From positions 2,399 to 66,398 of the forward strand of contig CAAGDX010000014.1 of NCBI GenBank assembly GCA_900768685.1: a stretch of 64,000 bases of DNA, written 5' to 3'. The translations under genes and the position numbers were made by a program. Source of the DNA: Bacteroidales bacterium (GTDB lineage Bacteria; Bacteroidota; Bacteroidia; Bacteroidales; Muribaculaceae). Position 1 is the first letter of the stretch. The number at the start of each line of letters is the position of its first letter. The notes beneath the pieces were generated by a model. The model saw only the letters and a list, made by a program, of their open reading frames with translations, was not told the origin of the DNA and ran no database searches. Below, in pieces: positions 724 to 28,705 of the stretch.

Positions 724-2022
724 ATGCTACCTGAAAATCAAAGAAAACAAATAATATCTCTCATCAATCGCGAAGTTGTGCCGGCTATGGGGTGTACGGA
801 ACCTATAGCCGTGGCACTTTGTGCGTGCCGTGCCGCAGAACTTTTAGGCTGCGTGCCGACAAAAGTGAGAGTGGCACTAAGTGCAAATATCCTCAAAAAT
901 GCTATGGGAGTGGGAATCCCCGGCACAGGCATGATAGGTTTGCCTATCGCTATAGCACTCGGTGTTACTATAGGCAAATCCTGCTATGAACTTGAGGTGC
1001 TGAAAGACGTTAGTCCGGAGGCTGTGAGCCGTGCGGAAAAACTGATAGATGCCGGAATTATAGACATTGCTCTGAAAGAAGACACCACGGAAAAATTATA
1101 CATAGAGGTGGAAACTTCGGATAGCGATGGAAATTCAGCAACTGCCGTGATTTCCGGAGGACATACAAATTTTGTGCTTCTGAAAAAAGGAGATGAAACG
1201 GTATTGGACCGCAGGAAACCTCAAGGCATTGAAGAGACTGAAGAAAAAGTGAATCTTTCTATGCGGACAGTCTGGGAATTTGCCATGACTACACCGATAG
1301 ACGAAATTCGCTTTATTTTGGAATCCCGCAGGCTTAACAAGGCTGCAGCAGAGCAGTCGTTTGCCGGGAACTATGGTCACCAAGTGGGACGTACGCTCCA
1401 CTGTGCTCGCCAGAGAACTATTATGGGCGATAGTCCGTTTTCACGCGTAATCAGTTATACTTCAGCTGCTTGTGATGCACGAATGGCGGGTGCTCCAATT
1501 CCCGTGATGAGCAATAGCGGTAGTGGAAATCAAGGTATAGCCGCAACATTGCCGGTTGTGGTGTATGCAGAGGAAGTTTTTGCATCAGAGGAGAAAACAA
1601 TCCGAGCACTTATTTTGAGTCATCTCACCGTGATTTACATTAAGCAGAGCCTTGGCAGACTTTCCGCCCTATGTGGATGTGTGGTAGCCGCAACAGGCTC
1701 AGCATGTGGCATTTGCTATCTTATGGGCGGCGATTATGAGCAGATTGTAGCCACCACAAAAAATATGGTGGCAAATCTCACCGGTATGATTTGTGACGGT
1801 GCCAAACCGAGTTGCTCAATGAAACTCTCAAGTGGTGTTTCCACCGCTGTTATTTCCGCCATGATGGCAATGGAAGGGCAGTGTGTCACCTCCGTTGAGG
1901 GCATTATAGATGATGATATAGACAAAACTATCAGTAACCTCACTCATATCGGCCGTGACGGCATGAATGAAACGGACCATCTCATCTTGGATATAATGAC
2001 TCACAAAGGAGAATGCTTGTAA
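724..2022 (+). CDS. UPF0597 / L-cysteine desulfidase (YhaM/CyuA-like, serine dehydratase alpha-like) family protein
   Basis: MLPENQRKQIISLINREVVPAMGCTEPIAVALCA is the typical N-terminus of this family. I chose the ATG at 724 over the ORF-track start at 640, which would overlap guaA by 53 nt. Confidence 0.7.
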   Translation: MLPENQRKQIISLINREVVPAMGCTEPIAVALCACRAAELLGCVPTKVRVALSANILKNAMGVGIPGTGMIGLPIAIALGVTIGKSCYELEVLKDVSPEAVSRAEKLIDAGIIDIALKEDTTEKLYIEVETSDSDGNSATAVISGGHTNFVLLKKGDETVLDRRKPQGIEETEEKVNLSMRTVWEFAMTTPIDEIRFILESRRLNKAAAEQSFAGNYGHQVGRTLHCARQRTIMGDSPFSRVISYTSAACDARMAGAPIPVMSNSGSGNQGIAATLPVVVYAEEVFASEEKTIRALILSHLTVIYIKQSLGRLSALCGCVVAATGSACGICYLMGGDYEQIVATTKNMVANLTGMICDGAKPSCSMKLSSGVSTAVISAMMAMEGQCVTSVEGIIDDDIDKTISNLTHIGRDGMNETDHLILDIMTHKGECL

Positions 2023-2098
2023 GTCATGCTTTTTAACATATTGTAAGGAATCCCAATATTTTTAAGTAATTTCTTTTGTAAAAAAGTAAAATATTTTT

Positions 2099-2106
2099 TA
2101 TTTTTG
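2099..2106 (+). promoter_or_regulatory. Bacteroidetes-type -7 promoter motif (TATTTTTG = TAnnTTTG) upstream of the island operon
   Basis: Exact match to TAnnTTTG, 38 nt upstream of the ATG at 2144, in an AT-rich intergenic region. Confidence 0.4.
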
Positions 2107-2143
2107 TACAACCTTAATGTTTTACTCAAAATAATACTCAAAT

Positions 2144-4264
2144 ATGGATATTGATATTGATGGATTCAATAATTATTGTACCCTGTTACCAAAAGGACTA
2201 CCTAATTTATATAAACGCATAAGTAGTGAAATTATTAAGTTCCTTAATGATAATGAGCATAAGATTCTTTATTTGCAATGGCCAACGGAGGAATTAACTA
2301 ATAAAACGAATAAAAAAGAAACCCTTTGGCAAGAGATATGTGATGTTGTATCTTATGCAATAAGGGTGTGTTTGAAACCACAATATGAATATAATAAGGC
2401 TAAGAATTATTTTATCCGTTGTGGTGAAGAAGAGTATTATATTAAAAAGGATGAAAATAGTAATAGAGAAATTGCCCCTTTTTATAATTGCCCGTATGGA
2501 AGAAAATTAAATTTCACAGGAAAGAACAAAGAAAGTCTTTTAAATAGTGCAATACAAGATAACAATTTTTATGAAATTGAAATTCCAAATGGTTATAGTA
2601 GAAATTTGAGCAGAAAGGTTAAGGAGGAGGTATGCGTGTTGTCATCTAATAAAGATCTTCAAAATGAAAACTTACAAACTGCTGCAATATATTGCAGCCC
2701 ATATTTTGATTTTAAATTAGCGGGACAGTATGTTTACCCCAAAGTTGAAACATTAAATTCAAATGGGAAATTTGTGAGAAAAGATGTTATTGCAATAATT
2801 GGAGACAGGGTATTTGATAAAATACAAAGGATAGTTAATATAAACCCTAAAAAACTTATAGTATTTGGTACTTCTCATCACAATTATCTTATGAACCAAA
2901 CCCCATACGTTGTAACTTTCACTTTGAAGGAAGCGTATGAATATTGTGATACAAAAAATAATTACAAATATATTGAGCCTCAATTTATTGCCATCAAATT
3001 TGATTGGTTGTCAAACAAAATTAAAGAGTTGAATGATTGTTTGAGATTATTACAACAAGAAGATAAAGGTTTAATTGATGAGGACATAAGATTTATACTC
3101 AATTTATTTAGGTATCCATTGACGTCAATTAATTTTACCGGAAACAATTTGGAGGAATATAAAAATCGTTTAATAAAGTGTATTGACGAGAGATTGGATA
3201 ATATTGGAGAAGAAACTTTTGACAAAATTGTTAAATGGATTGAGGGTATTAGTTATGAGGAATCTAATAATACTAATCCAAAAAAGAAATATTTGGAATC
3301 ACAAAAAAATTGCATATTTATTGATATAAATAGAAGCATACAGAGACAACTTAATGACATTAACGATAAGTTTAATGGTAAACTTGTGATAGATTTGCCA
3401 AAATATTCAAGAGATGTTCCTATAGAGCTCCCCATTTGCAATATTATGCGTTATCGTTTGTATGCACAAGTAATAGTATTATATTACGAAGACATTCAAG
3501 ACGATAATATGAGATACGTTAAGAATAGTCTTAATAACAATCCATATTTTCCTAATCATAATGCTGAACAAGAAAGTACAAATACGAACGGTGCCTATAG
3601 ATTAGAGGATTATATGTATGATTATATAGAATATTTGAATGAAAGTAATTCTTCCCAATTTGAGACAATCTATTTTGTTAATGATACATTTGCTCAAATT
3701 ACTGGAGATGTGTTACTTCATAAAGATAATGGAGAATATCAATACATTAATGCAAAAGATATAAATCAATATTCTGGCAGAACTATCACTTATTACGTAA
3801 AACATGATTGTTTTGATGATTTAATGAGAGGTTTTCTTGGATTTCCTAAGGACAGAGGTATAGATTATTATGTAACACAATGGCATAATGCATTGCAGCA
3901 ATATATTTCTATAGAAGGCTCAGAAAATTTTTGCAGAGAGTTTGGCATCTCCCAACAAATATTAAATAATCACCTAAATGGAACATCAAATTTTTTGACA
4001 AAAAGAAAATTTGAGAAAGTGTTAAGGTTTCTTAAAGAGAGAGGATATTTAGATGAAGAGGAAATGAAGTTTGTTCTTGCTGCAAGAAATATGCAGGGAG
4101 TAGAAAATATTAAATTTGGCAAAAAATTAAAAGAGTCTCTTTTTGAGCATATTATTAATCCTGAATCAAATAAATATGAAACTTTTTTTAATAAGATTCT
4201 TAGTGAGGAATCAACAAAGGAAAGTTTGTGTGAAAAATTTTTAAGTACAAATATAATTAGATAG
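2144..4264 (+). CDS. Hypothetical 706-aa protein; first gene of the helicase/DUF1998 island operon
   Basis: Long uninterrupted ORF with the same AT-rich codon usage as the two downstream genes and only 8 nt before the next start. It has no signal peptide and no catalytic motif I recognise. The C-terminal segment FCREFGISQQILNNHLNGTSNFLTKRKFEKVLRFLKERGYL looks helix-turn-helix-like. Confidence 0.75.
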   Translation: MDIDIDGFNNYCTLLPKGLPNLYKRISSEIIKFLNDNEHKILYLQWPTEELTNKTNKKETLWQEICDVVSYAIRVCLKPQYEYNKAKNYFIRCGEEEYYIKKDENSNREIAPFYNCPYGRKLNFTGKNKESLLNSAIQDNNFYEIEIPNGYSRNLSRKVKEEVCVLSSNKDLQNENLQTAAIYCSPYFDFKLAGQYVYPKVETLNSNGKFVRKDVIAIIGDRVFDKIQRIVNINPKKLIVFGTSHHNYLMNQTPYVVTFTLKEAYEYCDTKNNYKYIEPQFIAIKFDWLSNKIKELNDCLRLLQQEDKGLIDEDIRFILNLFRYPLTSINFTGNNLEEYKNRLIKCIDERLDNIGEETFDKIVKWIEGISYEESNNTNPKKKYLESQKNCIFIDINRSIQRQLNDINDKFNGKLVIDLPKYSRDVPIELPICNIMRYRLYAQVIVLYYEDIQDDNMRYVKNSLNNNPYFPNHNAEQESTNTNGAYRLEDYMYDYIEYLNESNSSQFETIYFVNDTFAQITGDVLLHKDNGEYQYINAKDINQYSGRTITYYVKHDCFDDLMRGFLGFPKDRGIDYYVTQWHNALQQYISIEGSENFCREFGISQQILNNHLNGTSNFLTKRKFEKVLRFLKERGYLDEEEMKFVLAARNMQGVENIKFGKKLKESLFEHIINPESNKYETFFNKILSEESTKESLCEKFLSTNIIR

Positions 4265-4272
4265 TAAGACTT

Positions 4273-7200
4273 ATGTGTTTAACAGATATAGAAGCAAGAG
4301 ACATTATAGAAGATGATGTTAAGAAAAAAATGCTTGGACCTGGGTATGCTATAGATGTCTTATTTTGTGAAGATGTTAATGAAGAAATTATTCCAGAGCA
4401 GCCCAGAAATGCATATAGAATGGGTATGTTGTTGCCTTTACAGACTCCAGGTAATGCTACTGCAAATACAAATGAAGACATTCAAAATGATGGTGATATA
4501 TTTGATGTAATTGAAGCACAAGAAGCTGAAAATGAGGCTGTAAATAATGCTAATAATGAGGGCGATTTGGATTGGAAAAATGTTTCTGATGAAGGCTCTG
4601 AAGACGTTCAGCCAACATTTGTTCCTCAAAATCAAACCGCCAACAATATGCAGTCCCATATTGGTTTGATAACTTGTGTGAATCAAAATACGAATAATGT
4701 AAGAATCACTATATCCTATGGTACATATAGCAGAATGGATTGGGATACAGAAAGGAACGAAGTAAAAGTAAAATCTGGACAGTTTACGGGTTCTGTTAGT
4801 GATGCTATTGAAGAAATAGATAGAGATGAAAATGTAAGAACATGGCTTCAACTTAATGGGATTGAATCTTTCGCAAATGCTATTAATATAGATAGGGATA
4901 ACAATCAAATATCAATATCCCCAAATTTACAAAATAGGCCGGAAAGAAATCTTTATTTTCGTAATGGAATAAATTTGGTAGTACAAGAACTTATAGGCAT
5001 ACTTTTTGCACCTCATTTTAAGCGTTCTCATCACGAAATACAAAAGGAAATTGATTTGACTCCTGGCCAGGACATAAATATTGATGAAAAACTTGACGAT
5101 AATGTTCGGCTATATGTACAGTCTTTTCAATCACAAGAAAAGAAATTCATTAATGTGCAGCTTCAGTCTATCAATCAAATAATTTATCAGCCAAAGATAG
5201 AATTGGAAGGAAATTTAATTCCTTATACAGAACCTATAACATCGCTTGAGCATGATGAAGAGAATAACATAAATGAGTTCTTGTATCGAAATGTGGAAAA
5301 TTACGGAAAAGGTGTTAATTGTGCGATAGGATGGGATAACAATAGACCGTGTAATCGTGTTTTCACAACCTTTATTCCAACAGTAAATATTGAAAAATTT
5401 TCAAATAAAGCAAATGATCAAGAAATTATTGAGTTGTGCAAGTTGCGAAATCTGAGTATTTGGACTGAGCGTAACAACGAAGATTATATTAAATGTTTGT
5501 CAGGATTCGTAGATGGTTATAAAACTTGGCATATTAAGCAAACGCAAATAGCAAATGGCATTGAAGGATATGGTAATCAAAAAACTACGATATTAGATCG
5601 TCAACAAATGCTATTAGATAGATTAAGAGACAATGTACAATACCTCCAAGATAATGAAGAGGCTCTTATGTGTTTCAAAATTGCAAATACGGCTATGCTT
5701 CTTCAGATGGTGGTGGCAAGACATCCGGATTTTAGTAAAGGCAGACCTTTAGTAGAAAGAGTTGCCGAATTTTATAATAATTTAGAATTCTTCTCTAATG
5801 CGACATATACGGAAAGAATGGACGAGCCATCATACTATCCTTTCCAACTCGCCTTCTTGCTAATGAATGTAAAATCTACATTTGAAGTTCAAGATGTTAA
5901 TCATACAAAAAATGTTGATCTTATTTGGTTTCCAACTGGAGGCGGAAAAACCGAAGCATATCTTGCACTCACTGCATTAACAATCGTGCAGCGAAGGAGA
6001 GTACAGCAGAGAAATGGAGTGTCTGTAATTATGAGATATACCCTTCGCTTGCTCACAACTCAACAATTTGAGAGAGCTACCTATCTGATATGTGCACTTG
6101 ATTTTCTTAGACAAACAAATGAAGGTTTAAATTTGGGAGAAGAAAAAATATCTATAGGACTTTATGTAGGAAATGGGGTAACTCCAAATACAATCGAAGA
6201 AGCTATAAGAAGATACCGCGATTTTAATAACAATCATAATGGAAATAATCCATTCCCTGTTTGTTACTGTCCTTGGTGCGGTACTAATTTGGTAGATGGA
6301 GATAAATATGGATATGATATAAATCGATTTACTATTAGTTGCTTAAATAATCAGTGTATATTTTCAGGCCAGTTGCCTATATATTACATTGATGAGCAAA
6401 TATATCAAAGAAAACCCACTTTGCTGTTTGCTACAGTTGACAAATTTGCGCAACTTTATAGAAATAGAAACGCAAATTTATTGAGAGACTGTTCTCCAGA
6501 CCTTATTATTCAAGATGAATTGCACCTCCTTGTAGGAGCGTTGGGTTCAATCACGGGGTTTTATGAGCCAATGATTGAAAAACTTTGTTCTACTGAAGAT
6601 AGAAGACCTAAAATAATTGCATCAACGGCAACAACGCGCAATACAAGCCGTTTGATTCAAGCACTTTATAATAGGAATGTTAATGTTTTTCCGGCACAGG
6701 GAATAGAATATAACGATAATTATTTTTCCCATACGGATAGAGGTAATGAAAAAAGACGTCAAATAGGACTTGCTCCATCACAAAACGTCTCTTCCAATGT
6801 GGCTGAAATTCGTCTTACTGCAATTTTGTTACTTGCAAAAGTAAAGGTATTTAAAGAATTCATTTCAAGACAAGGATTAGATTGGACAAATCCCCAACAT
6901 GTTATACAAGCATGCAAAAACGTTGATAGGCTAGCAGAACTACTAACAAACTATTGGACAACAGTTTTGTATTATAATAATCTTAAAGACCTTGGCAGAT
7001 CTAGAAGCAGAGTTCCTCAAGAAATCTTTGAAAATGTCCGTTCCCATCAGTACCTATATTTAATCCCAAATTCATTACGAATTTTAAGGTGTAACAATGG
7101 TTTCACAAGTAACGTTATAGAATTTACAAGCAGAATAGATTCAGGTAGAATTAAAGGATATCTTGATAGGGCACAAAATCCAATTGGTGCAACCGTTAAT

Positions 7201-7770
7201 AATTACCATTTGGATGTTAACAATAATCGTTCAGATTTAGTTTTTGCATCAAATATGATTTCCGTTGGTATTGACATTGGTCGATGGAATTTGATGATAA
7301 TGGTGGGACAACCAAAGTCTGTATCTGAATATGTTCAAGCTTCAAGCCGTGTAGCAAGAAATACTTATGGACTCGTACTGAATCTGTTTAACCCACATAG
7401 AGTTCGTGAGTTGTCTATTTATGAGAATTATACGTCTTTTCATAATTCTTATTATAAGGCAGTTGAACCTCTAAGTATTACTCCTTTCACACGCTCTACA
7501 ATTAAACACAAAATATTGAATAATATTATTGAGATTTATAGAAATTATTTTTTAGATAATCGAAATATTGACGAAACTGTGTTAGCACAAAGTGTGTATG
7601 ACTTTTTGTTTAGAAATCGTTTTGAAAATGCAGAAATTCTGAGAGACGACTTTATTCGTGAAGCTGAAAATGCATTGAGGCATAGAAATGAAGATAATAA
7701 AGCTCAGGCACTCAGGTCTGTTGGTGAAAATTCTTATATAAGTATTAATGGCGTAACTTACAGAAGATGA
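4273..7770 (+). CDS. SF2 DEAH-type helicase, DrmA-like (DISARM/Druantia-type helicase), 1165 aa
   Basis: Helicase motifs are present: I WFPTGGGKTEAYLAL (GGGKT at nt 5938-5952), II IIQDELHLL (DELH at nt 6514-6525), III IIASTATT, VI YVQASSRVAR. A Cys-rich ribbon CYCPWC...CLNNQC lies at nt 6262-6357. About 550 aa precede motif I, with PEQPRNAYRMGMLLP near the N-terminus. The stop overlaps the next start (ATGA at 7767-7770). Confidence 0.8.
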   Translation: MCLTDIEARDIIEDDVKKKMLGPGYAIDVLFCEDVNEEIIPEQPRNAYRMGMLLPLQTPGNATANTNEDIQNDGDIFDVIEAQEAENEAVNNANNEGDLDWKNVSDEGSEDVQPTFVPQNQTANNMQSHIGLITCVNQNTNNVRITISYGTYSRMDWDTERNEVKVKSGQFTGSVSDAIEEIDRDENVRTWLQLNGIESFANAINIDRDNNQISISPNLQNRPERNLYFRNGINLVVQELIGILFAPHFKRSHHEIQKEIDLTPGQDINIDEKLDDNVRLYVQSFQSQEKKFINVQLQSINQIIYQPKIELEGNLIPYTEPITSLEHDEENNINEFLYRNVENYGKGVNCAIGWDNNRPCNRVFTTFIPTVNIEKFSNKANDQEIIELCKLRNLSIWTERNNEDYIKCLSGFVDGYKTWHIKQTQIANGIEGYGNQKTTILDRQQMLLDRLRDNVQYLQDNEEALMCFKIANTAMLLQMVVARHPDFSKGRPLVERVAEFYNNLEFFSNATYTERMDEPSYYPFQLAFLLMNVKSTFEVQDVNHTKNVDLIWFPTGGGKTEAYLALTALTIVQRRRVQQRNGVSVIMRYTLRLLTTQQFERATYLICALDFLRQTNEGLNLGEEKISIGLYVGNGVTPNTIEEAIRRYRDFNNNHNGNNPFPVCYCPWCGTNLVDGDKYGYDINRFTISCLNNQCIFSGQLPIYYIDEQIYQRKPTLLFATVDKFAQLYRNRNANLLRDCSPDLIIQDELHLLVGALGSITGFYEPMIEKLCSTEDRRPKIIASTATTRNTSRLIQALYNRNVNVFPAQGIEYNDNYFSHTDRGNEKRRQIGLAPSQNVSSNVAEIRLTAILLLAKVKVFKEFISRQGLDWTNPQHVIQACKNVDRLAELLTNYWTTVLYYNNLKDLGRSRSRVPQEIFENVRSHQYLYLIPNSLRILRCNNGFTSNVIEFTSRIDSGRIKGYLDRAQNPIGATVNNYHLDVNNNRSDLVFASNMISVGIDIGRWNLMIMVGQPKSVSEYVQASSRVARNTYGLVLNLFNPHRVRELSIYENYTSFHNSYYKAVEPLSITPFTRSTIKHKILNNIIEIYRNYFLDNRNIDETVLAQSVYDFLFRNRFENAEILRDDFIREAENALRHRNEDNKAQALRSVGENSYISINGVTYRR

Positions 7771-9368
7771 AAAAATTAGAACAAATATCTCAAGAAAAAC
7801 TGATTTCGAACTATGGCGGGGGCGGAAGTATTATTGAAACTAACACAAATGGCTCATTAAAAGTTTCCGATTATGATAATTGGAGATGTTACAATCAAAG
7901 AAGAAATAATAATTTAAATGAAATAATAGATAATCGGCTTTTGAGCCTCGTAAGGCAAACATATCCTAATCGTAATGTACATCTTGTCAGTATTCCTACA
8001 CCTGATTTGTCGCAAAATGTATATTATGCAGGAAACGATGATATTAAAGATACAATTACTGCGGATAGATTCCCTAAGTGGTATTTTTGTCCTAATTGCC
8101 ATAGATTAGAAAAACTTGAAAGTTGGGCTAGATTGTGGGTTGAGCATCCGCCTAAACCTAATCAACGCAGAGGTAGAAATGCAAGGAATACAAGAAATAA
8201 TAGAACTGAACAAGAATATTATAAAAATGAGCCAATTTGTTACGTTGATAATAGAAAACTTGAACAAGTTCGTTTCGTAATGGCTTCGCTTGATACTGGA
8301 GAAATAAAAGATATTCCTTTTGATTGCCTTTTTTCAACGCAACCAGATGGTAATGTGTGGAATATTGAGCAGCTATATGTTAATAATATTTTCTACAAGA
8401 CAATTAGAAACAGAGATGGTTTAGATGCTATTTATATTGAACATAGAGATGAAAATAATATTGGTAGAAATATTTATATGTCAAGCATTGATAGATGTTA
8501 TCTTGTTTATAATGGTCATACATATAAAATGGCAATGAAAGGAAGTCAAAGTTTGTATTTCCCTAATATTGTGAGAAGCATATATATTCCTTATAACGAA
8601 GGAGACAATTTCGCTACTATAGACGAGTTGGAATTACAAGAATTTAGATTTCTAACAAATGGAGAAAATTATCGTAATAATTTACTGGTTACAGCCGACG
8701 AAAATCTTGTAATAAGGAGAAAACCTGAATTGGATGGTAGGGTTCCTCTTATTTCTAATATTAGTGCTATAGAAAGGCTGAAAGAAACGTCAGTTCTTTT
8801 AAGTTATTCTCGTTTAGGAAGAAATTCCGAGGAAATGGATTGGTATAATTGTACAACCCAAGCAATTGAAAGAACAAACCCGCATTTAAAATATCCCTTT
8901 AGAGGTGATATAAACGCTCAAACTTGGATTCCTGCTGTTGAATCTTATGGAGAAGGACTACTTTTTGAAATGGACACAGTTAATCTGCAGGTAATTCATA
9001 CGCTATGCCATATTATTATGAAAGAAATGGAGTTTCAGTGTGGATATCCTTTGACCTCCCTCAAGGAAAAAATATATATTGACAACGATAATAATAGGGC
9101 TGGTTTTATTATTTATACCATAGGAGGCAGTGAAGGAAGCTATGGTGGATTAATATCTCTCACAGACAGTGAAAAGATTGTCAACTTAATACAATCCGGT
9201 TGTGAACGTGCAAAACATTGTCCCAATGACCCAATTTGTTTAAATGACAATGCTCATTGTTTTGCATGCCTTGATTTGCCTGAAACATCTTGCTGTAAGT
9301 TTAATAACGATCTAAACAGAAGACAATTTTTGGAATTTTTAGAAAATACAATTAATCATCAAGAATAA
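7767..9368 (+). CDS. DUF1998 (MrfA-type Zn-binding) domain protein, DrmB-like, 533 aa
   Basis: The C-terminal Cys cluster CPNDPICLNDNAHCFACLDLPETSCCKFNNDLNRRQF (nt ~9200-9300) is the DUF1998 signature. The N-terminal LISNYGGGGSIIET and the CPNC ribbon (FPKWYFCPNCHRL) resemble DrmB. The gene is translationally coupled to the helicase gene. Confidence 0.8.
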   Translation: MKKLEQISQEKLISNYGGGGSIIETNTNGSLKVSDYDNWRCYNQRRNNNLNEIIDNRLLSLVRQTYPNRNVHLVSIPTPDLSQNVYYAGNDDIKDTITADRFPKWYFCPNCHRLEKLESWARLWVEHPPKPNQRRGRNARNTRNNRTEQEYYKNEPICYVDNRKLEQVRFVMASLDTGEIKDIPFDCLFSTQPDGNVWNIEQLYVNNIFYKTIRNRDGLDAIYIEHRDENNIGRNIYMSSIDRCYLVYNGHTYKMAMKGSQSLYFPNIVRSIYIPYNEGDNFATIDELELQEFRFLTNGENYRNNLLVTADENLVIRRKPELDGRVPLISNISAIERLKETSVLLSYSRLGRNSEEMDWYNCTTQAIERTNPHLKYPFRGDINAQTWIPAVESYGEGLLFEMDTVNLQVIHTLCHIIMKEMEFQCGYPLTSLKEKIYIDNDNNRAGFIIYTIGGSEGSYGGLISLTDSEKIVNLIQSGCERAKHCPNDPICLNDNAHCFACLDLPETSCCKFNNDLNRRQFLEFLENTINHQE

Positions 9369-9622
9369 GTTTGTTATAAAAAGAATTGAGCAATTTAGTA
9401 TAATTTATACTTTTTATGGGCTTTCGCCACACCTTGCTAGTAAGTGGCAAGGCGAGAGTGGCTGAGAGCCTATAGTTCTTCAATTTCGTATCATTACATT
9501 ATTCTTGTTTTCGTGTTGGGATTATCTGTTGTGTTCCAATTACTTCAAAGGTGCGTTCTCCTTAACCTTATAACTAAATTTATACTGATAGGGGACATTA
9601 GTGTTGTCTTAACGATTTTTTT

Positions 9623-9646
9623 ATTTAGAATGTTTCTAAATTAGAA
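9623..9646. promoter_or_regulatory. Operator-like array of three alternating inverted hexamers (TTAGAA-tgt-TTCTAA-a-TTAGAA) upstream of feoAB; possible Fur-type site
   Basis: ATTTAGAAtgtTTCTAAAT is a perfect 8-3-8 palindrome (9623-9641). TTCTAAaTTAGAA forms a second, overlapping palindrome (9634-9646). The array sits just upstream of a degenerate -7 motif GAAATTTG (9657-9664) and 52 nt upstream of the feoAB ATG. Confidence 0.4.
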
Positions 9647-9697
9647 ATATTATTGCGAAATTTGCAGTGTTATTCACAACTATAGTAGAGAAAAGCG

Positions 9698-12100
9698 ATG
9701 ACACTTGATGAACTGAAAACGGGTGAAAGTGCGATAATACTGAAAATTCGCGGTTATGGTGCTTTCCGTAAGCGAGTTACGGAAATGGGATTTATTCGAG
9801 GCAGAAGGATAGATGCCATTCAGGCTGCTCCTACTCATGACCCGGTGAAATACTCCATTATGGGCTATGAGGTTTTGCTCCGCCACGCAGAAGCAAAATA
9901 TATTGAAATTATTCCATGCAGTAAAGACTGCAAAGTTACTTTTGATTCGGTACGTTTTTCCGAAGACTTCACGGATGAGGTTTCACGACGTTATGCAGGC
10001 GAAAGTCACACAATAAATGTGGCACTCCTGGGAAATCCTAATAGTGGCAAGACTTCCCTGTTTAATTCCATTTCCGGTGCGAAAGGCTCTGTGGCAAACT
10101 ATGCAGGAGTGACGGTGGAGGCTGCCAAACAGTCTTTTACTTATTCCGGCTATACATTTAATTTTATTGACTTGCCCGGAACATATTCCCTTTCAACTTC
10201 TTCTCACGAAGACCTGTTTGTACGCCGTTTTCTGCAAAATGAGTGTCCTGACGTGATTCTGAATGTGGTGGATGCGTCTAACATTGAGCGAAATCTTTTC
10301 CTCACAACGGAACTGATTGATATGGACCGCCCGATGGTGATTGCCCTGAATATGTTCGACGAGTTGGAAAAGACCGGTGCGGTGTTTGACTACGACAGCC
10401 TCGGCAAGATGATAGGTGTGCCTATGGTGCCTACTGTGTCAAAAGACGGGGAGGGCAAGAATGAACTGCTTGACACACTGATAAATACATACGAGCAACA
10501 CGATAAACGTGTAAGGCATATCCATGTTCGCCTTAATGCGGATATTGAGCGTGCCGTGGGGCTGCTGAAAGATATAATTAAGGGAGATGGCACTATTGAG
10601 CGGCATTTTTCTCCACGCTACCTGGCTATCAAACTCCTTGAGGGAGACAGCGAGGTGCAAAATATCCTCGCTGATTGTGATTCATACGGCGAACTGATTA
10701 AGATTCGTGATGAGCAGGTGGCGGAAATTTTGGAGATTCACCCGCAAGAAGATATTGCCACGATTGTGGCTAATGAAAAATACGGATTTATAGCCGGTGC
10801 ACTTGCAGAGACTTTTCACCGTGCCAAAGGTGAAAGCGAAGACAAAACAAAGGCTATAGATGCTATTGTCACAAACCGTCTGATAGGCTTTCCGATATTT
10901 TTTGCGGTGATGTTCGTGATGTTTTGGGCTACCTTCTCGCTTGGTGCATATCCTCAAGACTGGATAGAATCCGGAGTGAACTTTATTTCAAACATAATCC
11001 GCGAATATATGCCGGAAGGCGTACTCAAAGACCTTGTTTGCGATGGAATTATAGGTGGAGTGGGAGGTGTGATAATCTTCCTGCCAAACATATTGATACT
11101 ATATTTCTTCATTTCGCTTATGGAGGACTCCGGCTATATGTCTCGAGCGGCATTTATTATGGACAGCACGATGCACAAACTGGGACTTCACGGCAAATCA
11201 TTTATTCCGCTCGTTATGGGCTTCGGATGTAATGTCCCTGCGGTTATGGCGTCCGGTGCAATAGAAAGTCGTACGAGCCGCATAATTACGATTCTCATCA
11301 ATCCGTTTATGTCTTGCTCTGCACGTCTGCCGGTGTATGTACTGCTGATTGGCATTTTCTTCAGTGAACATGCGGCACTGATGTTTTTCGGTATTTATGC
11401 TCTTGGCATTATGGCTGCTATTTTTTCCGCACGATTACTGAGAAGATTCTGGTACAACGATGAGGAAACACCGTTCGTAATGGAACTTCCGCCATATCGT
11501 ATGCCGACACTTAAGTCATGTCTCCGACACATGTGGGGCAAGGGTCGTGAATACCTTAAAAAGATAGCGGGAGTAATACTTTTTGCAAGTATCGTTATTT
11601 GGACACTGAATTATTTCCCGAATCACGATGTGGAGCCGCTTACAGAAGAGCAAATGGCAACTATTGATGAGTCTGAGATAGATCCCGAGCGTGACTCATA
11701 TCTGGAAATGATAGGCAAGGCGATAAATCCTGTGCTCAGTCCGCTTGGTTTCTCATGGCGTACGTCTGTGGCAGTGATTACGGGTTTGCCGGCAAAGGAA
11801 ATTACCGTTTCCACACTTGGCGTGCTTTACACCGGCGACAGTGAGGCGGAGCAAGCCACACTTAAGGAACGACTTTCCTCACCGTCGCCTATCACGGGTA
11901 AACCGGACTTTGATAAGGCGTCTGCATTGTCACTAATGGTGTTTGTACTTCTATACACTCCGTGTTTTGCTACATTGGCAGCTATAGTGAAGGAGTGTGG
12001 CTCATGGAAGTACGGTGCGTTTTCTGCGGCATACAATACTACGCTGGCATGGGTAGCAGCATTTGCAGTATATCGCATAGCACTTTTGTTTATTGCATAG
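9698..12100 (+). CDS. feoB: Ferrous iron transporter, FeoA-FeoB fusion
   Basis: The N-terminal ~75 aa are FeoA-like (LDELKTGESAIILKI...). They are followed by the FeoB G-domain (VALLGNPNSGKTSLFN, DLPGTYSL) and a polytopic membrane domain. Confidence 0.92.
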   Translation: MTLDELKTGESAIILKIRGYGAFRKRVTEMGFIRGRRIDAIQAAPTHDPVKYSIMGYEVLLRHAEAKYIEIIPCSKDCKVTFDSVRFSEDFTDEVSRRYAGESHTINVALLGNPNSGKTSLFNSISGAKGSVANYAGVTVEAAKQSFTYSGYTFNFIDLPGTYSLSTSSHEDLFVRRFLQNECPDVILNVVDASNIERNLFLTTELIDMDRPMVIALNMFDELEKTGAVFDYDSLGKMIGVPMVPTVSKDGEGKNELLDTLINTYEQHDKRVRHIHVRLNADIERAVGLLKDIIKGDGTIERHFSPRYLAIKLLEGDSEVQNILADCDSYGELIKIRDEQVAEILEIHPQEDIATIVANEKYGFIAGALAETFHRAKGESEDKTKAIDAIVTNRLIGFPIFFAVMFVMFWATFSLGAYPQDWIESGVNFISNIIREYMPEGVLKDLVCDGIIGGVGGVIIFLPNILILYFFISLMEDSGYMSRAAFIMDSTMHKLGLHGKSFIPLVMGFGCNVPAVMASGAIESRTSRIITILINPFMSCSARLPVYVLLIGIFFSEHAALMFFGIYALGIMAAIFSARLLRRFWYNDEETPFVMELPPYRMPTLKSCLRHMWGKGREYLKKIAGVILFASIVIWTLNYFPNHDVEPLTEEQMATIDESEIDPERDSYLEMIGKAINPVLSPLGFSWRTSVAVITGLPAKEITVSTLGVLYTGDSEAEQATLKERLSSPSPITGKPDFDKASALSLMVFVLLYTPCFATLAAIVKECGSWKYGAFSAAYNTTLAWVAAFAVYRIALLFIA

Positions 12101-12216: not shown

Positions 12217-12289
12217 TGTCAAAAACGGACAAAATAGCATTTTAGGGGTATTTTGTCCGATTTTGTCAAACTTTTGTCCGTTTCTGTCA
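12217..12289. repeat. Three copies of an ~18-nt motif TTTTGTCCGnTTnTGnCA (one inverted, two direct); putative regulator binding array
   Basis: Copy A is TGTCAAAAACGGACAAAA (12217-12234, inverted orientation). Copy B is TTTTGTCCGATTTTGTCA (12251-12268). Copy C is TTTTGTCCGTTTCTGTCA (12272-12289). B and C start 21 nt apart, and the array lies directly upstream of the -7 motif at 12313. Confidence 0.5.
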
Positions 12290-12312
12290 TATAAAATTTG
12301 TGTAAGAACGTT

Positions 12313-12320
12313 AATTTTGC
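12313..12320 (+). promoter_or_regulatory. Bacteroidetes -7 promoter motif TAATTTTG upstream of the DUF1573 gene
   Basis: Exact TAnnTTTG, 39 nt upstream of the ATG at 12359. Confidence 0.5.
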
Positions 12321-12358
12321 AACGTAATAATACGCTTAAACGCATTTGCCGTTTAACT

Positions 12359-12784
12359 ATGAATATAATTGTGTTTTATAAAAGGCTTATTGCTTTAGTG
12401 TTTCTGTTGTTCACTGTTGCATCTGTATCCTCCCAAAGTGAAATAGGGTGGATAGGTGGAACGGTTTTTGAGTTTGGAGAAATACGTGAAGCAGATGGTG
12501 AAATCCGGCATTGTTTCCGGTTTCGCAACAATGGCGAAGAACCTTTCAGCATTATTCGCATAAGCACAAGTTGCGGTTGCACGAATGTGGATTACACACG
12601 AACCCTTATTGAACCCGGTGACACAGCAAAAATAGACGTTACATTTAATCCCGCAGGACGTGACGGAAAATTCCGCTCTCGCCTTGCAGTATATACGGAT
12701 TCTCCGGACGGCATGAACAGTCTTTTCCTCAAAGGATATGTAATACCGTTGGAAAAACCGGATAGCACCTTGGTTCAGGAATAG
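12359..12784 (+). CDS. DUF1573 domain protein (secreted, ASH/PapD-like Ig fold)
   Basis: Signal peptide MNIIVFYKRLIALVFLLFTVASVSSQ. FEFGEIREADGEIRHCFRFRNNGEEPFSIIRISTSCGCTNVDY...GDTAKIDVTFNP is the typical DUF1573 pattern, including the sCGCT motif. The start was moved from the ORF-track 12263 to the ATG that precedes the signal peptide and follows the promoter motif. Confidence 0.75.
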   Translation: MNIIVFYKRLIALVFLLFTVASVSSQSEIGWIGGTVFEFGEIREADGEIRHCFRFRNNGEEPFSIIRISTSCGCTNVDYTRTLIEPGDTAKIDVTFNPAGRDGKFRSRLAVYTDSPDGMNSLFLKGYVIPLEKPDSTLVQE

Positions 12785-12908
12785 CGTAGAGGTTTGGGGA
12801 AAGTGAAGCGGATATTAAGTCATAAAATGTGGCATAAATATAGAATACTTAACAAACAGCATAAAACAATTAATTATCTCAAATATTAACTCTAAAAACA
12901 GTGTTAAA

Positions 12909-15836
12909 ATGAAAAAACTTTTATCATTTTTCTTGATGACTGTCATTTCAACTGCCACAATGTTTGCAGCAAGAAACTGGACTTCTGTCGAGTATCAGAA
13001 CCAGGCTGTTGCATACGTAGCACTCGTTGATGGTGACGGAAATCCGATTAGTGTGGGAGAAAACACTACTCTCGGTGCCTTCATTGGTGATGAGTGCCGT
13101 GGTATTGCAGAAATCTCCACAGTAGGGACAACCACTGCTTCCTCACTGTTCACCCTCCGTATTGGTGTGAATCCTGATGAAGGAACGCAGAATGTAACCC
13201 TCGTTGTTAAATGTTACGAAACGGAATACACTCTTTCAAGTGCTATTACCGTAGATGGCACGGACCAGACATTCGGTGAGCCGTCAACACCTCTTACTCG
13301 TACATTTATTGCTGCTACTACTCTCAGCCTTCCGGAAACACTGGAAGTAAATGTGGGCGGTACTGTCAATCTTTTGGACAATCTTACCATCACTCCGTCT
13401 AATGCCAATCTTCCTGATGAGATTGTATGGGAATACGGAAACAGTAAGGATTATATCAAGGTTGAAAACAATGTCCTCACAGGTCTCAAGGCTAACCGGA
13501 CAGGTGCATACCTTGGTGTAAGTTTCGGAGCACCTAACAGCAGTGTACCAAGTGCTAATACAAATGTAATTGTAAATCAGCCTATTACAGGTATTACACT
13601 CAATCCGAATTACCCGGAGGCTACTATTCACGTTGACATCTACGATTCAGAAACCCTCACAAATGCATTGCAGTCAATAATTGTGATTACTCCGGACGAT
13701 GCTACGGAAACTGTAGTTTGGGTTCCTTCTGATGAAACTGCATTTGAAGTAAATTCAACAGTGACTAACGGTTGGACGCCGGTAAAAGCAGGTACATTTA
13801 CTATGACAGCAACTGCAGTTGGTGGTGCAAAATTTGCTGTGACTGTGATTGTTCGCCAGCCGGTAGAAAAATACGCACAGTTTTATGAAATACTCACAGT
13901 GACTGTAGGTACAGTGGTTTCAGACCTTTTGCCACATACCTTTGCACTCTTCCCGGAAACAGCAACAGACCCGATGTCAGGTATCAGTTATGCCGTATCT
14001 GGCACAGATGACCAAGGCAATGATGTCCTTTCCATGACGGAAGGCGTTATCACAGCAGAATATGTTGGTAGTGCAACGGTTACGGTTACTCACTCGGATA
14101 TTCCTAATATGCCGTGGACAGTATCTGTCAATGTAGTGAAACTGCCTACAGAAGCAGACTTCTCTATCAGCCAAGATCCACTCGTGATTGAAGTGGCACA
14201 AGATCTCCTTGGTACACTTGATATTACATCAAATATTCAAGGCAATATCAAGACAGGTGAATATGCTTTTGATGCACTTGTTTGGGCGGAAAACTATGGT
14301 GAAGGAACACCGGTGCTTACTATAAACGGTAACGGAAGTACGGCAGCATATCAGTTTATCGCTGCTGCATACGGCACAAGCCGCATTGAAGGTACTATCA
14401 CAACTCTCCTCAGCGGTTTTGACGGCAAAGGCAATTTCAGCAATGCAATTCCAAACGTATTCACAACAGGCTTCGGCATCCAAATCACACAGGCTCTCTC
14501 TGCAATTTCATTCAATCCAATCACAATCGGTTGCGAAGACACATACGAACTCGTAATCACCACAACTCCGGAAAATTATCCTCTCGCAGACGTTCAATTC
14601 ACAATTCCGACTGCAGTTGAAGATGAAGATGCACCGTATTTTACTCTTACTCGCATAGGAAATGAAAACAAGTGGACATTAGAGCCAAAACTCGTTGGTG
14701 AGTCTCGTTTGACTGCAACTGTAGGCAATCTTAGTGATACTCAACCCGTTAAGATAACTCAACGTGTAAACCTTGGCGAAGGTTGGAATTGGCTTTCACT
14801 CTATTCCGGTACGGAAAGTGCAGATGCCTTTCGCACAAACTATGCTAATGCTCAGGAAGTACGTTCACAGACACAATTAATGTACAATGACCCGAATTTC
14901 GGCTTCTTCGGCTCTCTCGTTTCACTTGACAATTCTTCATTCTATCGTGTTAAAGTGAAAGAAGGACAAACTGTTGCTTATTTGGCTGAAAACACGGATC
15001 TTTTCTCAAACGAGAGCAAAGAAGTTTCATTCAAAGCAGGATGGACATGGTTCAGCAACCGCTATTGCAAGAATCGCAACTTCCAAGAAGTATTTGGAAA
15101 AGTGATTCTTCCGGCAAACAGTTACGTTATTGCTCAAACCGGATTTATGACATTTGACTCTGAATCAAGTACATGGGTTGGTACTCTCAAATCACTCAAT
15201 GCAGGTGAAGGTTACATTGTTTACAATGCAGGCGATGCTGCTGCTAACGTATTATTTATGCCGGACAGATATCTCACTGAATATCAAGCACCTGAATCAG
15301 GCAATTCATTTGACATCTACAGCGAAACGCCGGATTTCAACTACAATCCAAATCAGTTTGCTGAAAATATGTGTATTGTCGCTGAATTTGCAGGCGACCT
15401 TGAACCGAATCGTTATGCTATCGGTGCATTCGTAGATGGTGAATGTCGCGGTGAAGGCAAGATGATTGGTAACCGTTTCTTCATCACTGTTGCCGGTCAG
15501 CCTCAAGACGTTGTAAACTTTGAACTCTTTGACCGTGCTACAGGCAACTATATTACAGTTGATAACAGCGTGAACTTCACAAAACTCCTCGGTACTCTTT
15601 CCGAACCTGCAATCCTCAAAGCAGAAGTTACAGGCGTGGATATGATTTCAAAAGATGGCTCTGTGAATATCGGTGTTGAAAACGGCAATATTGTAGTTGA
15701 CGGTGCAGAAGCAGAAAACGTAAAAGTTTATACCGTTTCAGGTCAGCAGGTATCAGGTGAAAACCTTGCAAGCGGCGTTTATGTGGTGAAAGTTGCTACT
15801 GAAAACGGCGTTATCACTCGCAAGATTGTGAAATAA
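12909..15836 (+). CDS. 975-aa secreted protein with Ig-like (Big_2-type) repeats and a T9SS C-terminal sorting domain
   Basis: Signal peptide MKKLLSFFLMTVISTATMFA. Big_2-like segments are present (e.g. LEVNVGGTVNLLDNLTITPSNANLPDEIVWEYGNSKDYIKVENNVLTGLKANRTGAY). The C-terminus VKVYTVSGQQVSGENLASGVYVVKVATENGVITRKIVK is typical of a Por/T9SS CTD. Confidence 0.8.
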   Translation: MKKLLSFFLMTVISTATMFAARNWTSVEYQNQAVAYVALVDGDGNPISVGENTTLGAFIGDECRGIAEISTVGTTTASSLFTLRIGVNPDEGTQNVTLVVKCYETEYTLSSAITVDGTDQTFGEPSTPLTRTFIAATTLSLPETLEVNVGGTVNLLDNLTITPSNANLPDEIVWEYGNSKDYIKVENNVLTGLKANRTGAYLGVSFGAPNSSVPSANTNVIVNQPITGITLNPNYPEATIHVDIYDSETLTNALQSIIVITPDDATETVVWVPSDETAFEVNSTVTNGWTPVKAGTFTMTATAVGGAKFAVTVIVRQPVEKYAQFYEILTVTVGTVVSDLLPHTFALFPETATDPMSGISYAVSGTDDQGNDVLSMTEGVITAEYVGSATVTVTHSDIPNMPWTVSVNVVKLPTEADFSISQDPLVIEVAQDLLGTLDITSNIQGNIKTGEYAFDALVWAENYGEGTPVLTINGNGSTAAYQFIAAAYGTSRIEGTITTLLSGFDGKGNFSNAIPNVFTTGFGIQITQALSAISFNPITIGCEDTYELVITTTPENYPLADVQFTIPTAVEDEDAPYFTLTRIGNENKWTLEPKLVGESRLTATVGNLSDTQPVKITQRVNLGEGWNWLSLYSGTESADAFRTNYANAQEVRSQTQLMYNDPNFGFFGSLVSLDNSSFYRVKVKEGQTVAYLAENTDLFSNESKEVSFKAGWTWFSNRYCKNRNFQEVFGKVILPANSYVIAQTGFMTFDSESSTWVGTLKSLNAGEGYIVYNAGDAAANVLFMPDRYLTEYQAPESGNSFDIYSETPDFNYNPNQFAENMCIVAEFAGDLEPNRYAIGAFVDGECRGEGKMIGNRFFITVAGQPQDVVNFELFDRATGNYITVDNSVNFTKLLGTLSEPAILKAEVTGVDMISKDGSVNIGVENGNIVVDGAEAENVKVYTVSGQQVSGENLASGVYVVKVATENGVITRKIVK

Positions 15837-16005
15837 TCACGAAGAATCTCTCGGAGCAAACATAGTGAACTCCGATAAGTAACATATATGATGAGAATAG
15901 TCGGGGCGGTTTATCCGCGTTTAACTATGAATTTTTTGGAACACCGTTCCGACTTTTCTCTTTTTTCAAAATCCGTTTACACACTATTAGATATAACAGC
16001 ACTAA

Positions 16006-25634: not shown

Positions 25635-25661
25635 TAAACTATAATTTAGAATATATACAGT

Positions 25662-27953: not shown

Positions 27954-28021
27954 TTCCCCAGAGCATACGCTCAAACGAGATAAATATAAAAAAGTACAAT
28001 ATATAAGCTGTAAGTATATAT

Positions 28022-28705
28022 ATGAAAAAATTACTGATGATAATGGCACTTCTCCCCGTACTCACTTCGTGCGGCGACTTCTTCGTCTTTGAGTCGCAGC
28101 CTGAAGAATGGGAGGGCGTGACCATGAAAATCGATTTTCAAGACGCTTACTTGATGGTGGGTGACTCTTTGCCGCTTACCGCCACTCTCACGCCTTATAA
28201 TCCCAATGAAAGTCCTATCTACTGGAGCAAGTCCGACACCGTTTGCACAAAAATGCAAAATGATACGCTTGTGGCACTTTATCCGGGCACTTTCACCGTT
28301 ATGGCACAGGTTGGAAACGGTGCTGTGACAGATGTTGCGGAAGTCAACGTGATAGACTATTGGGACGTGTCCGAATTGGAAACACGCTATCCGTACGATA
28401 TGCTGTTTTATGCCAAAATAGACGTTGACGGTGAAGAATTTAACGATTCCACAATGATTGTTTCCGCAACCGTTCTCGGCAACGTGGCAGGCGTGGCTGT
28501 GAAACGCAATGCTTTCGGTATTGACTATGCGGAAATTCGCGTTTGGGCTGATGCGGACACCAAGCAGGGCAAAGTAACTTTCCAATGTTACGACCGCAAA
28601 AGACATAAATTATATAGATGCAACGAGCGTCCGGAGTACGACGCTTTTGCTACTTACGGCACTCTTTCTGAATTATATCCAATAACCTTTAATACTTCCG
28701 AATAA
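28022..28705 (+). CDS. 227-aa lipoprotein with an Ig-like (Big_2-type) domain
   Basis: Lipobox LLPVLTSC. VGDSLPLTATLTPYNPNESPIYWSKSDTVCTKMQNDTLVALYPGTFTVMAQVGNGAVTDVAEVNVI fits the Big_2 pattern. Confidence 0.7.
   Translation: MKKLLMIMALLPVLTSCGDFFVFESQPEEWEGVTMKIDFQDAYLMVGDSLPLTATLTPYNPNESPIYWSKSDTVCTKMQNDTLVALYPGTFTVMAQVGNGAVTDVAEVNVIDYWDVSELETRYPYDMLFYAKIDVDGEEFNDSTMIVSATVLGNVAGVAVKRNAFGIDYAEIRVWADADTKQGKVTFQCYDRKRHKLYRCNERPEYDAFATYGTLSELYPITFNTSE

Follow-up and report, generated by a model that had tools for sequence, protein, structure and literature searches.

Class 2 DISARM, which Ofir et al. are said to have reported in 2018 from Bacillus paralicheniformis, reportedly has the composition DrmE-DrmA-DrmB-DrmC-DrmMII. 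Helicases of the MrfA/YprA type also act in DNA repair, where MrfAB, a single-chain MrfA with the MrfB exonuclease, is a conserved housekeeping system. We describe here a cassette of three genes, X-DrmA-DrmB, inserted between a UPF0597/SDH_alpha-family gene and feoAB in a 64,000-nucleotide stretch of DNA from a Bacteroidales bacterium of the Muribaculaceae (contig CAAGDX010000014.1), which is referred to below as the window. The locus is a recurrent mobile cassette with an unannotated partner family, a variant of the DISARM-like theme and not a new kind of system. We consider it probable, at roughly 60%, that it is a horizontally acquired accessory islet directed against phages or plasmids, in the form of a DISARM-like system that contains neither a methyltransferase nor a nuclease.

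The class 1 DISARM of Serratia sp. SCBI (DrmD-DrmMI-DrmA-DrmB-DrmC; PDB 7S9V/7S9W) provides the structural reference for such systems. Serratia DrmAB binds single-stranded DNA or 5' overhangs, tells DNA molecules apart by structure and not by sequence, and is held in an autoinhibited state by an unstructured trigger loop of 55 residues (PMC9142583). DrmC is dispensable and often missing, and host PLD nucleases were proposed by Bravo et al. as its substitutes (PMC9142583). Serratia DISARM acts on unmethylated DNA (PMC9142583; bioRxiv 10.1101/2021.12.28.474362), and removal of both methylases from the class 1 system does not lead to autoimmunity (bioRxiv 10.1101/2021.12.28.474362). In class 2, none of drmA, drmB and drmE can be dispensed with, unlike drmC, and loss of drmMII is deleterious (same preprint). 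The way in which DISARM stops phages is unsettled: the candidate nuclease is dispensable, and the reliance on methylation varies by class.

The text and part of the supplement of a survey of the YprA family (Bell et al. 2025, bioRxiv 10.1101/2025.09.15.676423) describe a DISARM-like clade with "many uncharacterized DISARM-like classes" and state that DISARM alone has the helicase consistently separated from the OB-CON-DUF1998 array. The same parts of the survey assign an EVE-like/PUA domain, a jelly roll and a winged helix-turn-helix to DISARM DrmA (Table S2), and fused nuclease, BrxA-like, ZBM and MarR-like domains to the Druantia protein DruE. As far as these parts go, an X-DrmA-DrmB cassette fits the description of the DISARM-like classes; neither this cassette, nor a four-gene form with a further gene, W, in front of X, nor the X family is described in them. 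A literature search likewise found no published description of the X-DrmA-DrmB cassette or of the X family.

The DrmA and DrmB homologues of the islet

The three genes lie on one strand and are tightly packed (Table 1), with 8 nt between the first and the second and an ATGA overlap between the second and the third. The GC (guanine plus cytosine) content of the islet is 0.318, against 0.432 in the rest of the window; per 500 nt it is 0.28–0.36 inside the islet versus 0.46–0.47 in both flanks, and at third codon positions it is 0.22–0.23 in the three genes versus 0.43–0.45 in the flanking genes. An earlier note on this DNA had described the block in just these terms, as low-GC and holding three tightly packed same-strand genes, and the coordinates and composition bear this out.

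The product of gene 2 matches ten DrmA models of PADLOC (best E-value 5e-157) and none of its DruE models. Its best NCBIfam helicase model is the class 2-type DISARM_DrmAS, for which its score of 696 bits falls short of the equivalog cutoff (950), a position that marks it as a divergent member of the DISARM DrmA proteins. It aligns with the solved Serratia DrmA (PDB 7s9v_A) at an E-value of 6.7e-100 and about 24% identity. An AlphaFold2 model computed from an alignment of 36 homologues (predicted local distance difference test, pLDDT, 81.7; predicted template modelling score, pTM, 0.78) was compared with known structures using Foldseek and superposes on 7S9V_A over the full length (template modelling scores, TM, 0.70/0.63; E-value 7e-58). 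More than 150 alignment columns are invariant over the 36 homologues. The helicase motifs that had been listed before, GGGKT (556), DELH (748) and QxxxRxxR (QASSRVAR, 1022), are all present, except that motif III reads STAT (784–787) and not SATT; a Cys-rich zinc module occupies residues 664–695, within RecA1. The product of gene 3 matches the PADLOC DrmB model (1.8e-35) and Serratia DrmB (PDB 7s9v_B, 8e-21), stays below the cutoffs of NCBIfam DrmB_fam (197 bits, cutoff 240) and of Pfam MZB (21 bits, cutoff 24.2), and carries the Cys cluster noted earlier (C479/485/491/498/501/509/510). Genes 2 and 3 are therefore true, although divergent, homologues of the DrmA and DrmB proteins that form the split helicase of DISARM, and the original description of the two as DrmA-like and DrmB-like is upheld by PADLOC and PDB 7S9V for both and by Foldseek for DrmA.

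The likeness to class 1 DISARM comprises the superposition of DrmA, the match of DrmB, the zinc module within RecA1 and a long disordered segment N-terminal of the helicase core, at the place of the Serratia trigger loop. The difference is that the window has neither the SNF2 helicase DrmD nor the N6 methylase DrmMI nor DrmC, and that X is present instead. With respect to the DISARM core, DrmA is present, DrmB is present as a separate gene directly after it, and DrmC is missing. The locus does not agree with ARMADA: the window lacks a BrxHII/RapA-like helicase and a PglX-like methyltransferase and the match of the helicase to BrxH is marginal (E-value 0.0026).

As DrmA and DrmB belong to the same YprA family as MrfA, and MrfA is second in the Foldseek ranking of DrmA, the locus might be thought to encode a housekeeping DNA-repair helicase and not a defence system. 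The runner-up is, however, far behind (TM 0.28 versus 0.70 for DrmA), the helicase is split in the manner of DISARM, no MrfB exonuclease gene accompanies it, and, as set out below, the island is accessory, low in GC and horizontally exchanged, with an empty site in a relative and with several related loci placed in defence islands. A repair function thus appears highly improbable.

The sole long internal disordered segment of the DrmA model, residues 58–126, is acidic and has a pLDDT of about 30. Its sequence is poorly conserved; a segment of 54–84 residues is nevertheless kept at this place in 36 of 36 homologues, and it adjoins a conserved block that aligns weakly with the part of Serratia DrmA directly after the trigger loop. 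We regard this segment as a candidate equivalent of the trigger loop. The region that follows, residues 129–377, is modelled with confidence as a β-rich N-terminal part. Together with the full-length match to 7S9V, with the EVE-like/PUA, jelly roll and winged helix-turn-helix annotation of DISARM DrmA in the part of the Bell et al. supplement noted above and with the absence of a methylase, this region would be compatible with a modification-dependent, type IV-like system, in which EVE-like domains of DrmA read modified bases of phage DNA and the host is ignored. The same N-terminal domains are, however, found in canonical DISARM systems that do have methylases, so they do not set the present variant apart, and Serratia DISARM targets unmethylated DNA; we consider a type IV-like mode rather improbable.

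Protein X, the conserved partner of DrmAB

The protein encoded by gene 1, designated X, matches no model of Pfam, NCBIfam or PADLOC, even at E ≤ 10, and had been taken for an ORFan. A word-indexed homology search, started from the single sequence or from a 29-sequence profile, returned only a 94% identical copy; the word-index pre-filter saturates on this protein of an AT-rich gene, and the family emerged from exhaustive HMMER searches and from walking through gene neighbourhoods. Directly before drmA, homologues of the helicase with about 50% identity have a gene for a protein of 720–740 residues without a Pfam domain, and these proteins align with X end to end (30–35% identity, E-values 1e-101 to 1e-106). 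Among 1.84 billion representative proteins the family comprises 39 clusters, with E < 1e-10 for 32, so that the ORFan designation no longer holds. In the ten clusters that were looked up, all members are unnamed and come from metagenome assemblies.

Profile-profile comparison extends the family to the proteins upstream of bare DrmAB pairs in two further loci, L011 and L012 (98–98.7% probability; L012 is judged to be gammaproteobacterial from its rsmI-lpoA-yraN gene order), to the upstream proteins of L027 and L028, and to a protein of the Haliscomenobacter hydrossis plasmid pHALHY02 (97.8% against X, 100% against the L011/L012 subgroup). A genome scan also revealed the X-drmA-drmB cassette in Xylanibacter rarus; a scan of viral contigs found no X. 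In the same profile-profile comparison, the DrmAB partner on a Hymenobacter plasmid (L018:4356-6947, WP_156126500.1) has only the C-terminal ~175 residues of X in common (96%), which hints that this part of X is a modular DrmAB-associated domain. A 510-residue protein encoded downstream of DrmB on a Bacillus toyonensis plasmid (L019:13637-15169) weakly resembles the same ~175 residues (61%).

In every X locus fetched in a local survey with hidden Markov models, the order X, DrmA, DrmB is kept on one strand and tightly packed, and the contexts in which X stands beside DrmAB are independent (Bacteroidales metagenomes, Xylanibacter rarus, the Haliscomenobacter plasmid and L012). X is a conserved dedicated partner encoded directly upstream of drmA-drmB, and the trio occurs alone in many genomes. 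The earlier note had remarked on the lack of a methyltransferase, PLD or SNF2 partner, and this is true of the island, of the window and of its relatives: no DNA methyltransferase or PLD nuclease was found within 10 kb in ten distinct X-bearing contexts with Pfam-annotated neighbours. The 64-kb window was also searched by tblastn with two proteins each of the C5 methylase, DrmC and DrmD types, with four W proteins and with four N6-type methylases taken from annotated class 1 loci, and no relative of any of them was found (all E > 0.05; best E-values 0.062 for DrmC and 0.13–0.59 for DrmD and the N6-type methylases).

About half of the contexts have W as a fourth gene before X (Table 1). It encodes an SF1 UvrD/AAA_19-like protein of 620–660 residues that gives weak PADLOC matches to the NERD+UvrD, Nhi, AbiO and GajB models and whose uncharacterised N-terminus of ~240 residues could be a nuclease. 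Some of the related loci lie among defence genes (AbiEii, PARP/NADAR, TIR, PglZ+SNF2, type I restriction-modification); others, the window included, lie between housekeeping genes.

The AlphaFold2 model of X, based on a 29-sequence alignment, has a pLDDT of 81.8 and a pTM of 0.62. Its Foldseek matches are weak (TM 0.15–0.25; best E-value 8e-4 in PDB and 9e-5 in BFVD), and two-lobed helicases of the RecA type make up the majority (DDX19/Dbp5, RIG-I/DRH-1, DEAH, nsp13, SLFN14, viral UvrD-like), which weakly suggests an α/β core of helicase-like fold. A Walker A motif is absent from the family, apart from one chance match in P0136, and the invariant residues P47, K237, K380, G521, Y551, W580, G659 and K663 include no recognisable catalytic motif. 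The X profile matched no PDB sequence, lenient Pfam scans of 29 members returned nothing beyond scattered single-member noise, and hhalign detected no relationship of X to W, DrmA or DrmB, so that X does not look like a copy of a helicase encoded next to it. Toward the C-terminus the model shows a small β module (~507–551) followed by a helical domain (~570–706), within which the sequence pattern points to a putative helix-turn-helix-like stretch.

The resemblance to class 2 DISARM is considerable. As in that class, a split YprA-family DrmA and a DUF1998 DrmB follow each other in the same order and are translationally coupled, a big protein without an annotated domain is encoded directly upstream, in the position of DrmE and presumably of similar size, and the best NCBIfam model of the helicase is of the class 2 type; by position, the trio corresponds to the three genes that are individually essential there. 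X could accordingly be a DrmE that has diverged very far, and the three genes could form the restriction core of a class 2 system whose C5 methyltransferase, and perhaps PLD nuclease, are encoded elsewhere. The deleterious effect of drmMII loss in class 2 (bioRxiv 10.1101/2021.12.28.474362) and the proposed replacement of DrmC by host PLD nucleases (Bravo et al., PMC9142583) are in keeping with this possibility, as is the gene order of a Lactobacillus plantarum plasmid, C5-methyltransferase, 801-residue hypothetical protein, DrmA, DrmB. It is opposed by the model searches, in which neither the 31 X members nor six other upstream proteins matched any PADLOC or NCBIfam model, DrmE and DruH included; PADLOC is taken here to hold DrmE models since its class 2 (type II) DISARM definition, made up of DrmA, DrmB, DrmC and DrmE together with DrmMII, requires DrmE, and no DrmE sequence served as a positive control. 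Like the lack of DrmMII and DrmC in the island, the window and the related loci, the scores of DrmA and DrmB below the NCBIfam cutoffs set the cassette apart from class 2. The diverged-DrmE reading is further opposed by the lack of a methyltransferase in the window and within 10 kb in the ten annotated contexts, and by the passage of an 8.7-kb segment with the island, and without a methylase, between lineages of ~85% identity (see below). Were a cognate methylase required, such a transfer would be autoimmune, which argues against a methylase encoded elsewhere. In sum, we think this alternative unlikely, although it is the foremost rival to the reading favoured here. No drmE annotation was encountered in the twelve annotated plasmid loci that were opened, all of which are class 1, other variants or bare trios.

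Druantia type III (DruH + DruE) also pairs a YprA helicase/DUF1998 unit with one large protein of unknown fold and function and has no methylase, and the earlier note had raised a split-DruE arrangement, with X as the analogue of DruH. DruE is, however, a single fused protein with nuclease domains; here the genes are separate, no nuclease match was found, and the helicase is of the DISARM type. As all its PADLOC matches are to DrmA, with a full-length match to the solved DrmA, and as neither the three proteins nor the 31 X relatives match DruE or DruH, a Druantia-like system is extremely improbable, and the doubt left at the outset as to whether gene 1 might be DrmE or DruH finds no support in PADLOC or NCBIfam. 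We favour the other reading offered at that time, in which the helicase and the DUF1998 protein form a minimal system that is independent of methylation and has a new third component.

On plasmids, DrmA-DrmB pairs occur with many differing partner sets (L016, L019, L020, L021, L112, L013, L017), such as an AAA ATPase with a hypothetical protein, two small hypothetical proteins before or after the pair, a C5-methyltransferase with an unrelated 801-residue protein, or a helicase with DUF4391 and a methyltransferase, and the pair is mostly labelled "helicase-related protein / DUF1998" by PGAP. This variety agrees with the uncharacterized DISARM-like classes mentioned in the available parts of Bell et al.

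Acquisition and exchange of the islet

Among 80 metagenomic loci encoding UPF0597 relatives, an empty site was found in a close relative, L029, where 116 bp separate UPF0597 from feoAB. The two proteins are 93% (UPF0597) and 94% (FeoB) identical to those of the window. Homology between the window and L029 stops at the UPF0597 stop codon (2022) and restarts near 9605; the right border of the insert lies at ~9604 and not at 9697, and the final ~93 nt are native feoAB upstream sequence common to the empty site.

A second occupied lineage, L109–L111, is a mosaic. Its backbone is 98–100% identical to L029 until the start of UPF0597, its UPF0597 and island are 93–98% identical to those of the window lineage, and from the right junction on it is again L029-like (98.7%); the window and L029-type backbones are mutually ~85% identical. 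The presence of the island is therefore polymorphic within one lineage (L029 versus L109–L111), and the transferred segment of 8.7 kb consists of the island and its left flank, without a methylase. The island moved between lineages by homologous recombination via its flanks, which explains the absence of an integrase, a tRNA gene and repeats. The earlier note was right that no such element is present, and the mechanism of acquisition, which it had called unclear, no longer is. No tRNA gene, meaningful flanking direct or inverted repeat or Rfam family was found at the island, and a possible GTCAT repeat of 5–6 nt at the junction was discounted as too short. The empty site and the recombinant mosaic together indicate that the island is accessory and mobile without an integrase; universal conservation as core genome, which had been named as a point that would speak for a repair role, is contradicted by its variable presence between UPF0597 and feoAB. 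A putative defence islet is thereby documented to have spread among gut Bacteroidales lineages of ~85% identity purely via homologous recombination in its flanks.

In two other loci, L001 and L002 (1-8500), the island and UPF0597 are 100% identical and the genes upstream of UPF0597 entirely different, with guaA/LrgAB in one and a Band_7/NfeD and glycosyltransferase cluster in the other, which suggests rearrangement or recombination upstream of UPF0597.

Ratios of nonsynonymous to synonymous substitution (dN/dS) between the window (2144-9368) and L109 (10001-17225) are 0.87 for X, 0.90 for DrmA and 0.73 for DrmB, compared with 0.07 for UPF0597 and 0.04 for FeoB in the flanks; the values, obtained by the Nei-Gojobori method (NG86), are probably inflated by the extreme AT codon bias of the island. 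Synonymous divergence of the island (0.03–0.06) is below that of the co-transferred UPF0597 (0.14). We read the elevated ratios of the island as possibly reflecting the fast evolution typical of defence genes. They would also fit a trio that is a decaying, non-functional remnant of a bigger DISARM locus from which methylase and nuclease have gone, as would the scores of all three proteins below curated NCBIfam or Pfam cutoffs and the decayed copies seen elsewhere: in L006 (1363-8802) X is split into 144 + 533 residues and DrmB into 371 + 204, and in L009 (8038-9996) the N-terminus of X is ~80 residues shorter than in otherwise identical loci. In the diverged copies of the window and of L109, by contrast, all 2,404 codons have stayed open in DNA of 32% GC. 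Distant lineages also have the trio, its catalytic motifs intact, the invariant columns of DrmA span all 36 homologues, a new lineage has recently acquired the island, and the bias just mentioned lowers the weight of the dN/dS values. A remnant is, on this evidence, very improbable.

Proposed mode of action and further features

That the islet serves in defence is what we infer from homology, accessory status, horizontal transfer and neighbours typical of defence islands. If so, DrmA and DrmB would form an ATP-driven translocase on single-stranded DNA, as in Serratia DISARM, which the acidic disordered loop of DrmA (58–126) might keep off host DNA in the way of the Serratia trigger loop. DrmAB would then load only on structures of the kind that invaders present, single-stranded DNA and 5' overhangs, and we propose that loading restricted in this manner makes a self-marking methylase unnecessary. 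X would fill the role of DrmE: its helicase-like body would be a degenerate one, lacking motifs for ATPase activity, and its helical C-terminal domain might contact DNA. As a DNA-binding adaptor or sensor, X could then link DrmAB to the target. Interference without an encoded nuclease might come about through disruption of replication by the translocase or through recruitment of a host nuclease. A more specific version holds that X-DrmA-DrmB, with or without W, is self-contained and independent of methylation and of a dedicated nuclease, that a pseudo-helicase/helix-turn-helix X senses or tethers invader DNA and a trigger-loop-gated DrmAB blocks its replication, and that the C-terminal module of X, common to the otherwise unrelated Hymenobacter and possibly Bacillus plasmid partners, represents a superfamily of DrmAB adaptors that may include DrmE; taken as a whole, we offer this only tentatively, with the odds against it.

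Several points weigh against a functional methylase-free defence system of this kind. The defence role itself is drawn from homology and context, and the high dN/dS may equally reflect relaxed constraint. As the closest NCBIfam DrmA (DrmAS) is of class 2, in which loss of drmMII is deleterious, a methylase-free form is not self-evidently safe, and the presence of W in about half of the related cassettes, and not in the window, means that the three-gene form might be incomplete. The assignment of the trigger loop draws on position, composition and low pLDDT, there being no alignable sequence; the helicase-like fold of X is a weak call at the TM values given above; and DNA binding by the C-terminal domain of X is deduced from secondary structure and sequence pattern alone.

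X-DrmA-DrmB is the smallest natural version of DISARM available. Should it prove protective, DrmAB plus an adaptor would suffice for both self/non-self discrimination and interference, and three genes would be enough to test directly what the trigger loop and the protein in the DrmE position do. A protein family labelled "hypothetical" in RefSeq and in metagenome catalogues also gains a name and a context.

The features of the locus are listed in Table 1. Bacteroides promoters are characterised by a TAnnTTTG/TTTG consensus, of which a candidate precedes gene 1. Behind the last gene, inside the insert, lies a GC-rich hairpin that is a possible terminator; no T-run comes after it. The L109 copy of the island (97% related) has a hairpin of different sequence at the same position (~17270-17330).

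Table 1. Coordinates of the features of the islet, its flanks and the W genes of related loci (window positions unless a locus is named)
Feature	Coordinates	Strand	Evidence
Low-GC insert of ~7.6 kb, flanked by the UPF0597/SDH_alpha gene and feoAB	2023..9604	+	Empty site L029; GC, third-position GC (GC3)
Candidate Bacteroides-type promoter: TTTG at 2075; TAnnTTTG box TATTTTTG at 2099-2106; 38 nt before the gene 1 ATG	2075..2106	+	Pattern match
Gene 1 (X), 706 aa, conserved partner of DrmAB in DrmE position	2144..4264	+	Homologue family, AlphaFold2 model
Gene 2, DrmA, 1165 aa, SF2 YprA-family helicase	4273..7770	+	PADLOC, NCBIfam, PDB 7s9v_A, AlphaFold2/Foldseek
Gene 3, DrmB, 533 aa, DUF1998/MZB zinc-binding partner of DrmA	7767..9368	+	PADLOC, NCBIfam, Pfam MZB, 7s9v_B
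GC-rich hairpin in the 3' tail of the island, possible terminator	9414..9475	+	RNAfold dG -34.8 kcal/mol
Left flank: UPF0597/SDH_alpha-family gene that moved along with the island in the L109 lineage	724..2022	+	Pfam SDH_alpha 3e-69; mosaic analysis
Right flank: fused feoA-feoB gene, native	9698..12100	+	Pfam FeoA, FeoB_N, Gate, FeoB_C
W genes	L003:5833-7716, L007:5914-7782, L010:8019-9902, L023:8023-9999, L025:941-2872		

Beyond feoAB, the window continues (12263-31020) with a small DUF1573/HYDIN-like gene and then very large open reading frames on the same strand (975, 583, 2626, 763, 227 and 771 aa). No Pfam domain was found in the five largest of them, the 227-aa frame lying outside the scan, and this ~18-kb block of giant proteins may be a cell-surface cluster.

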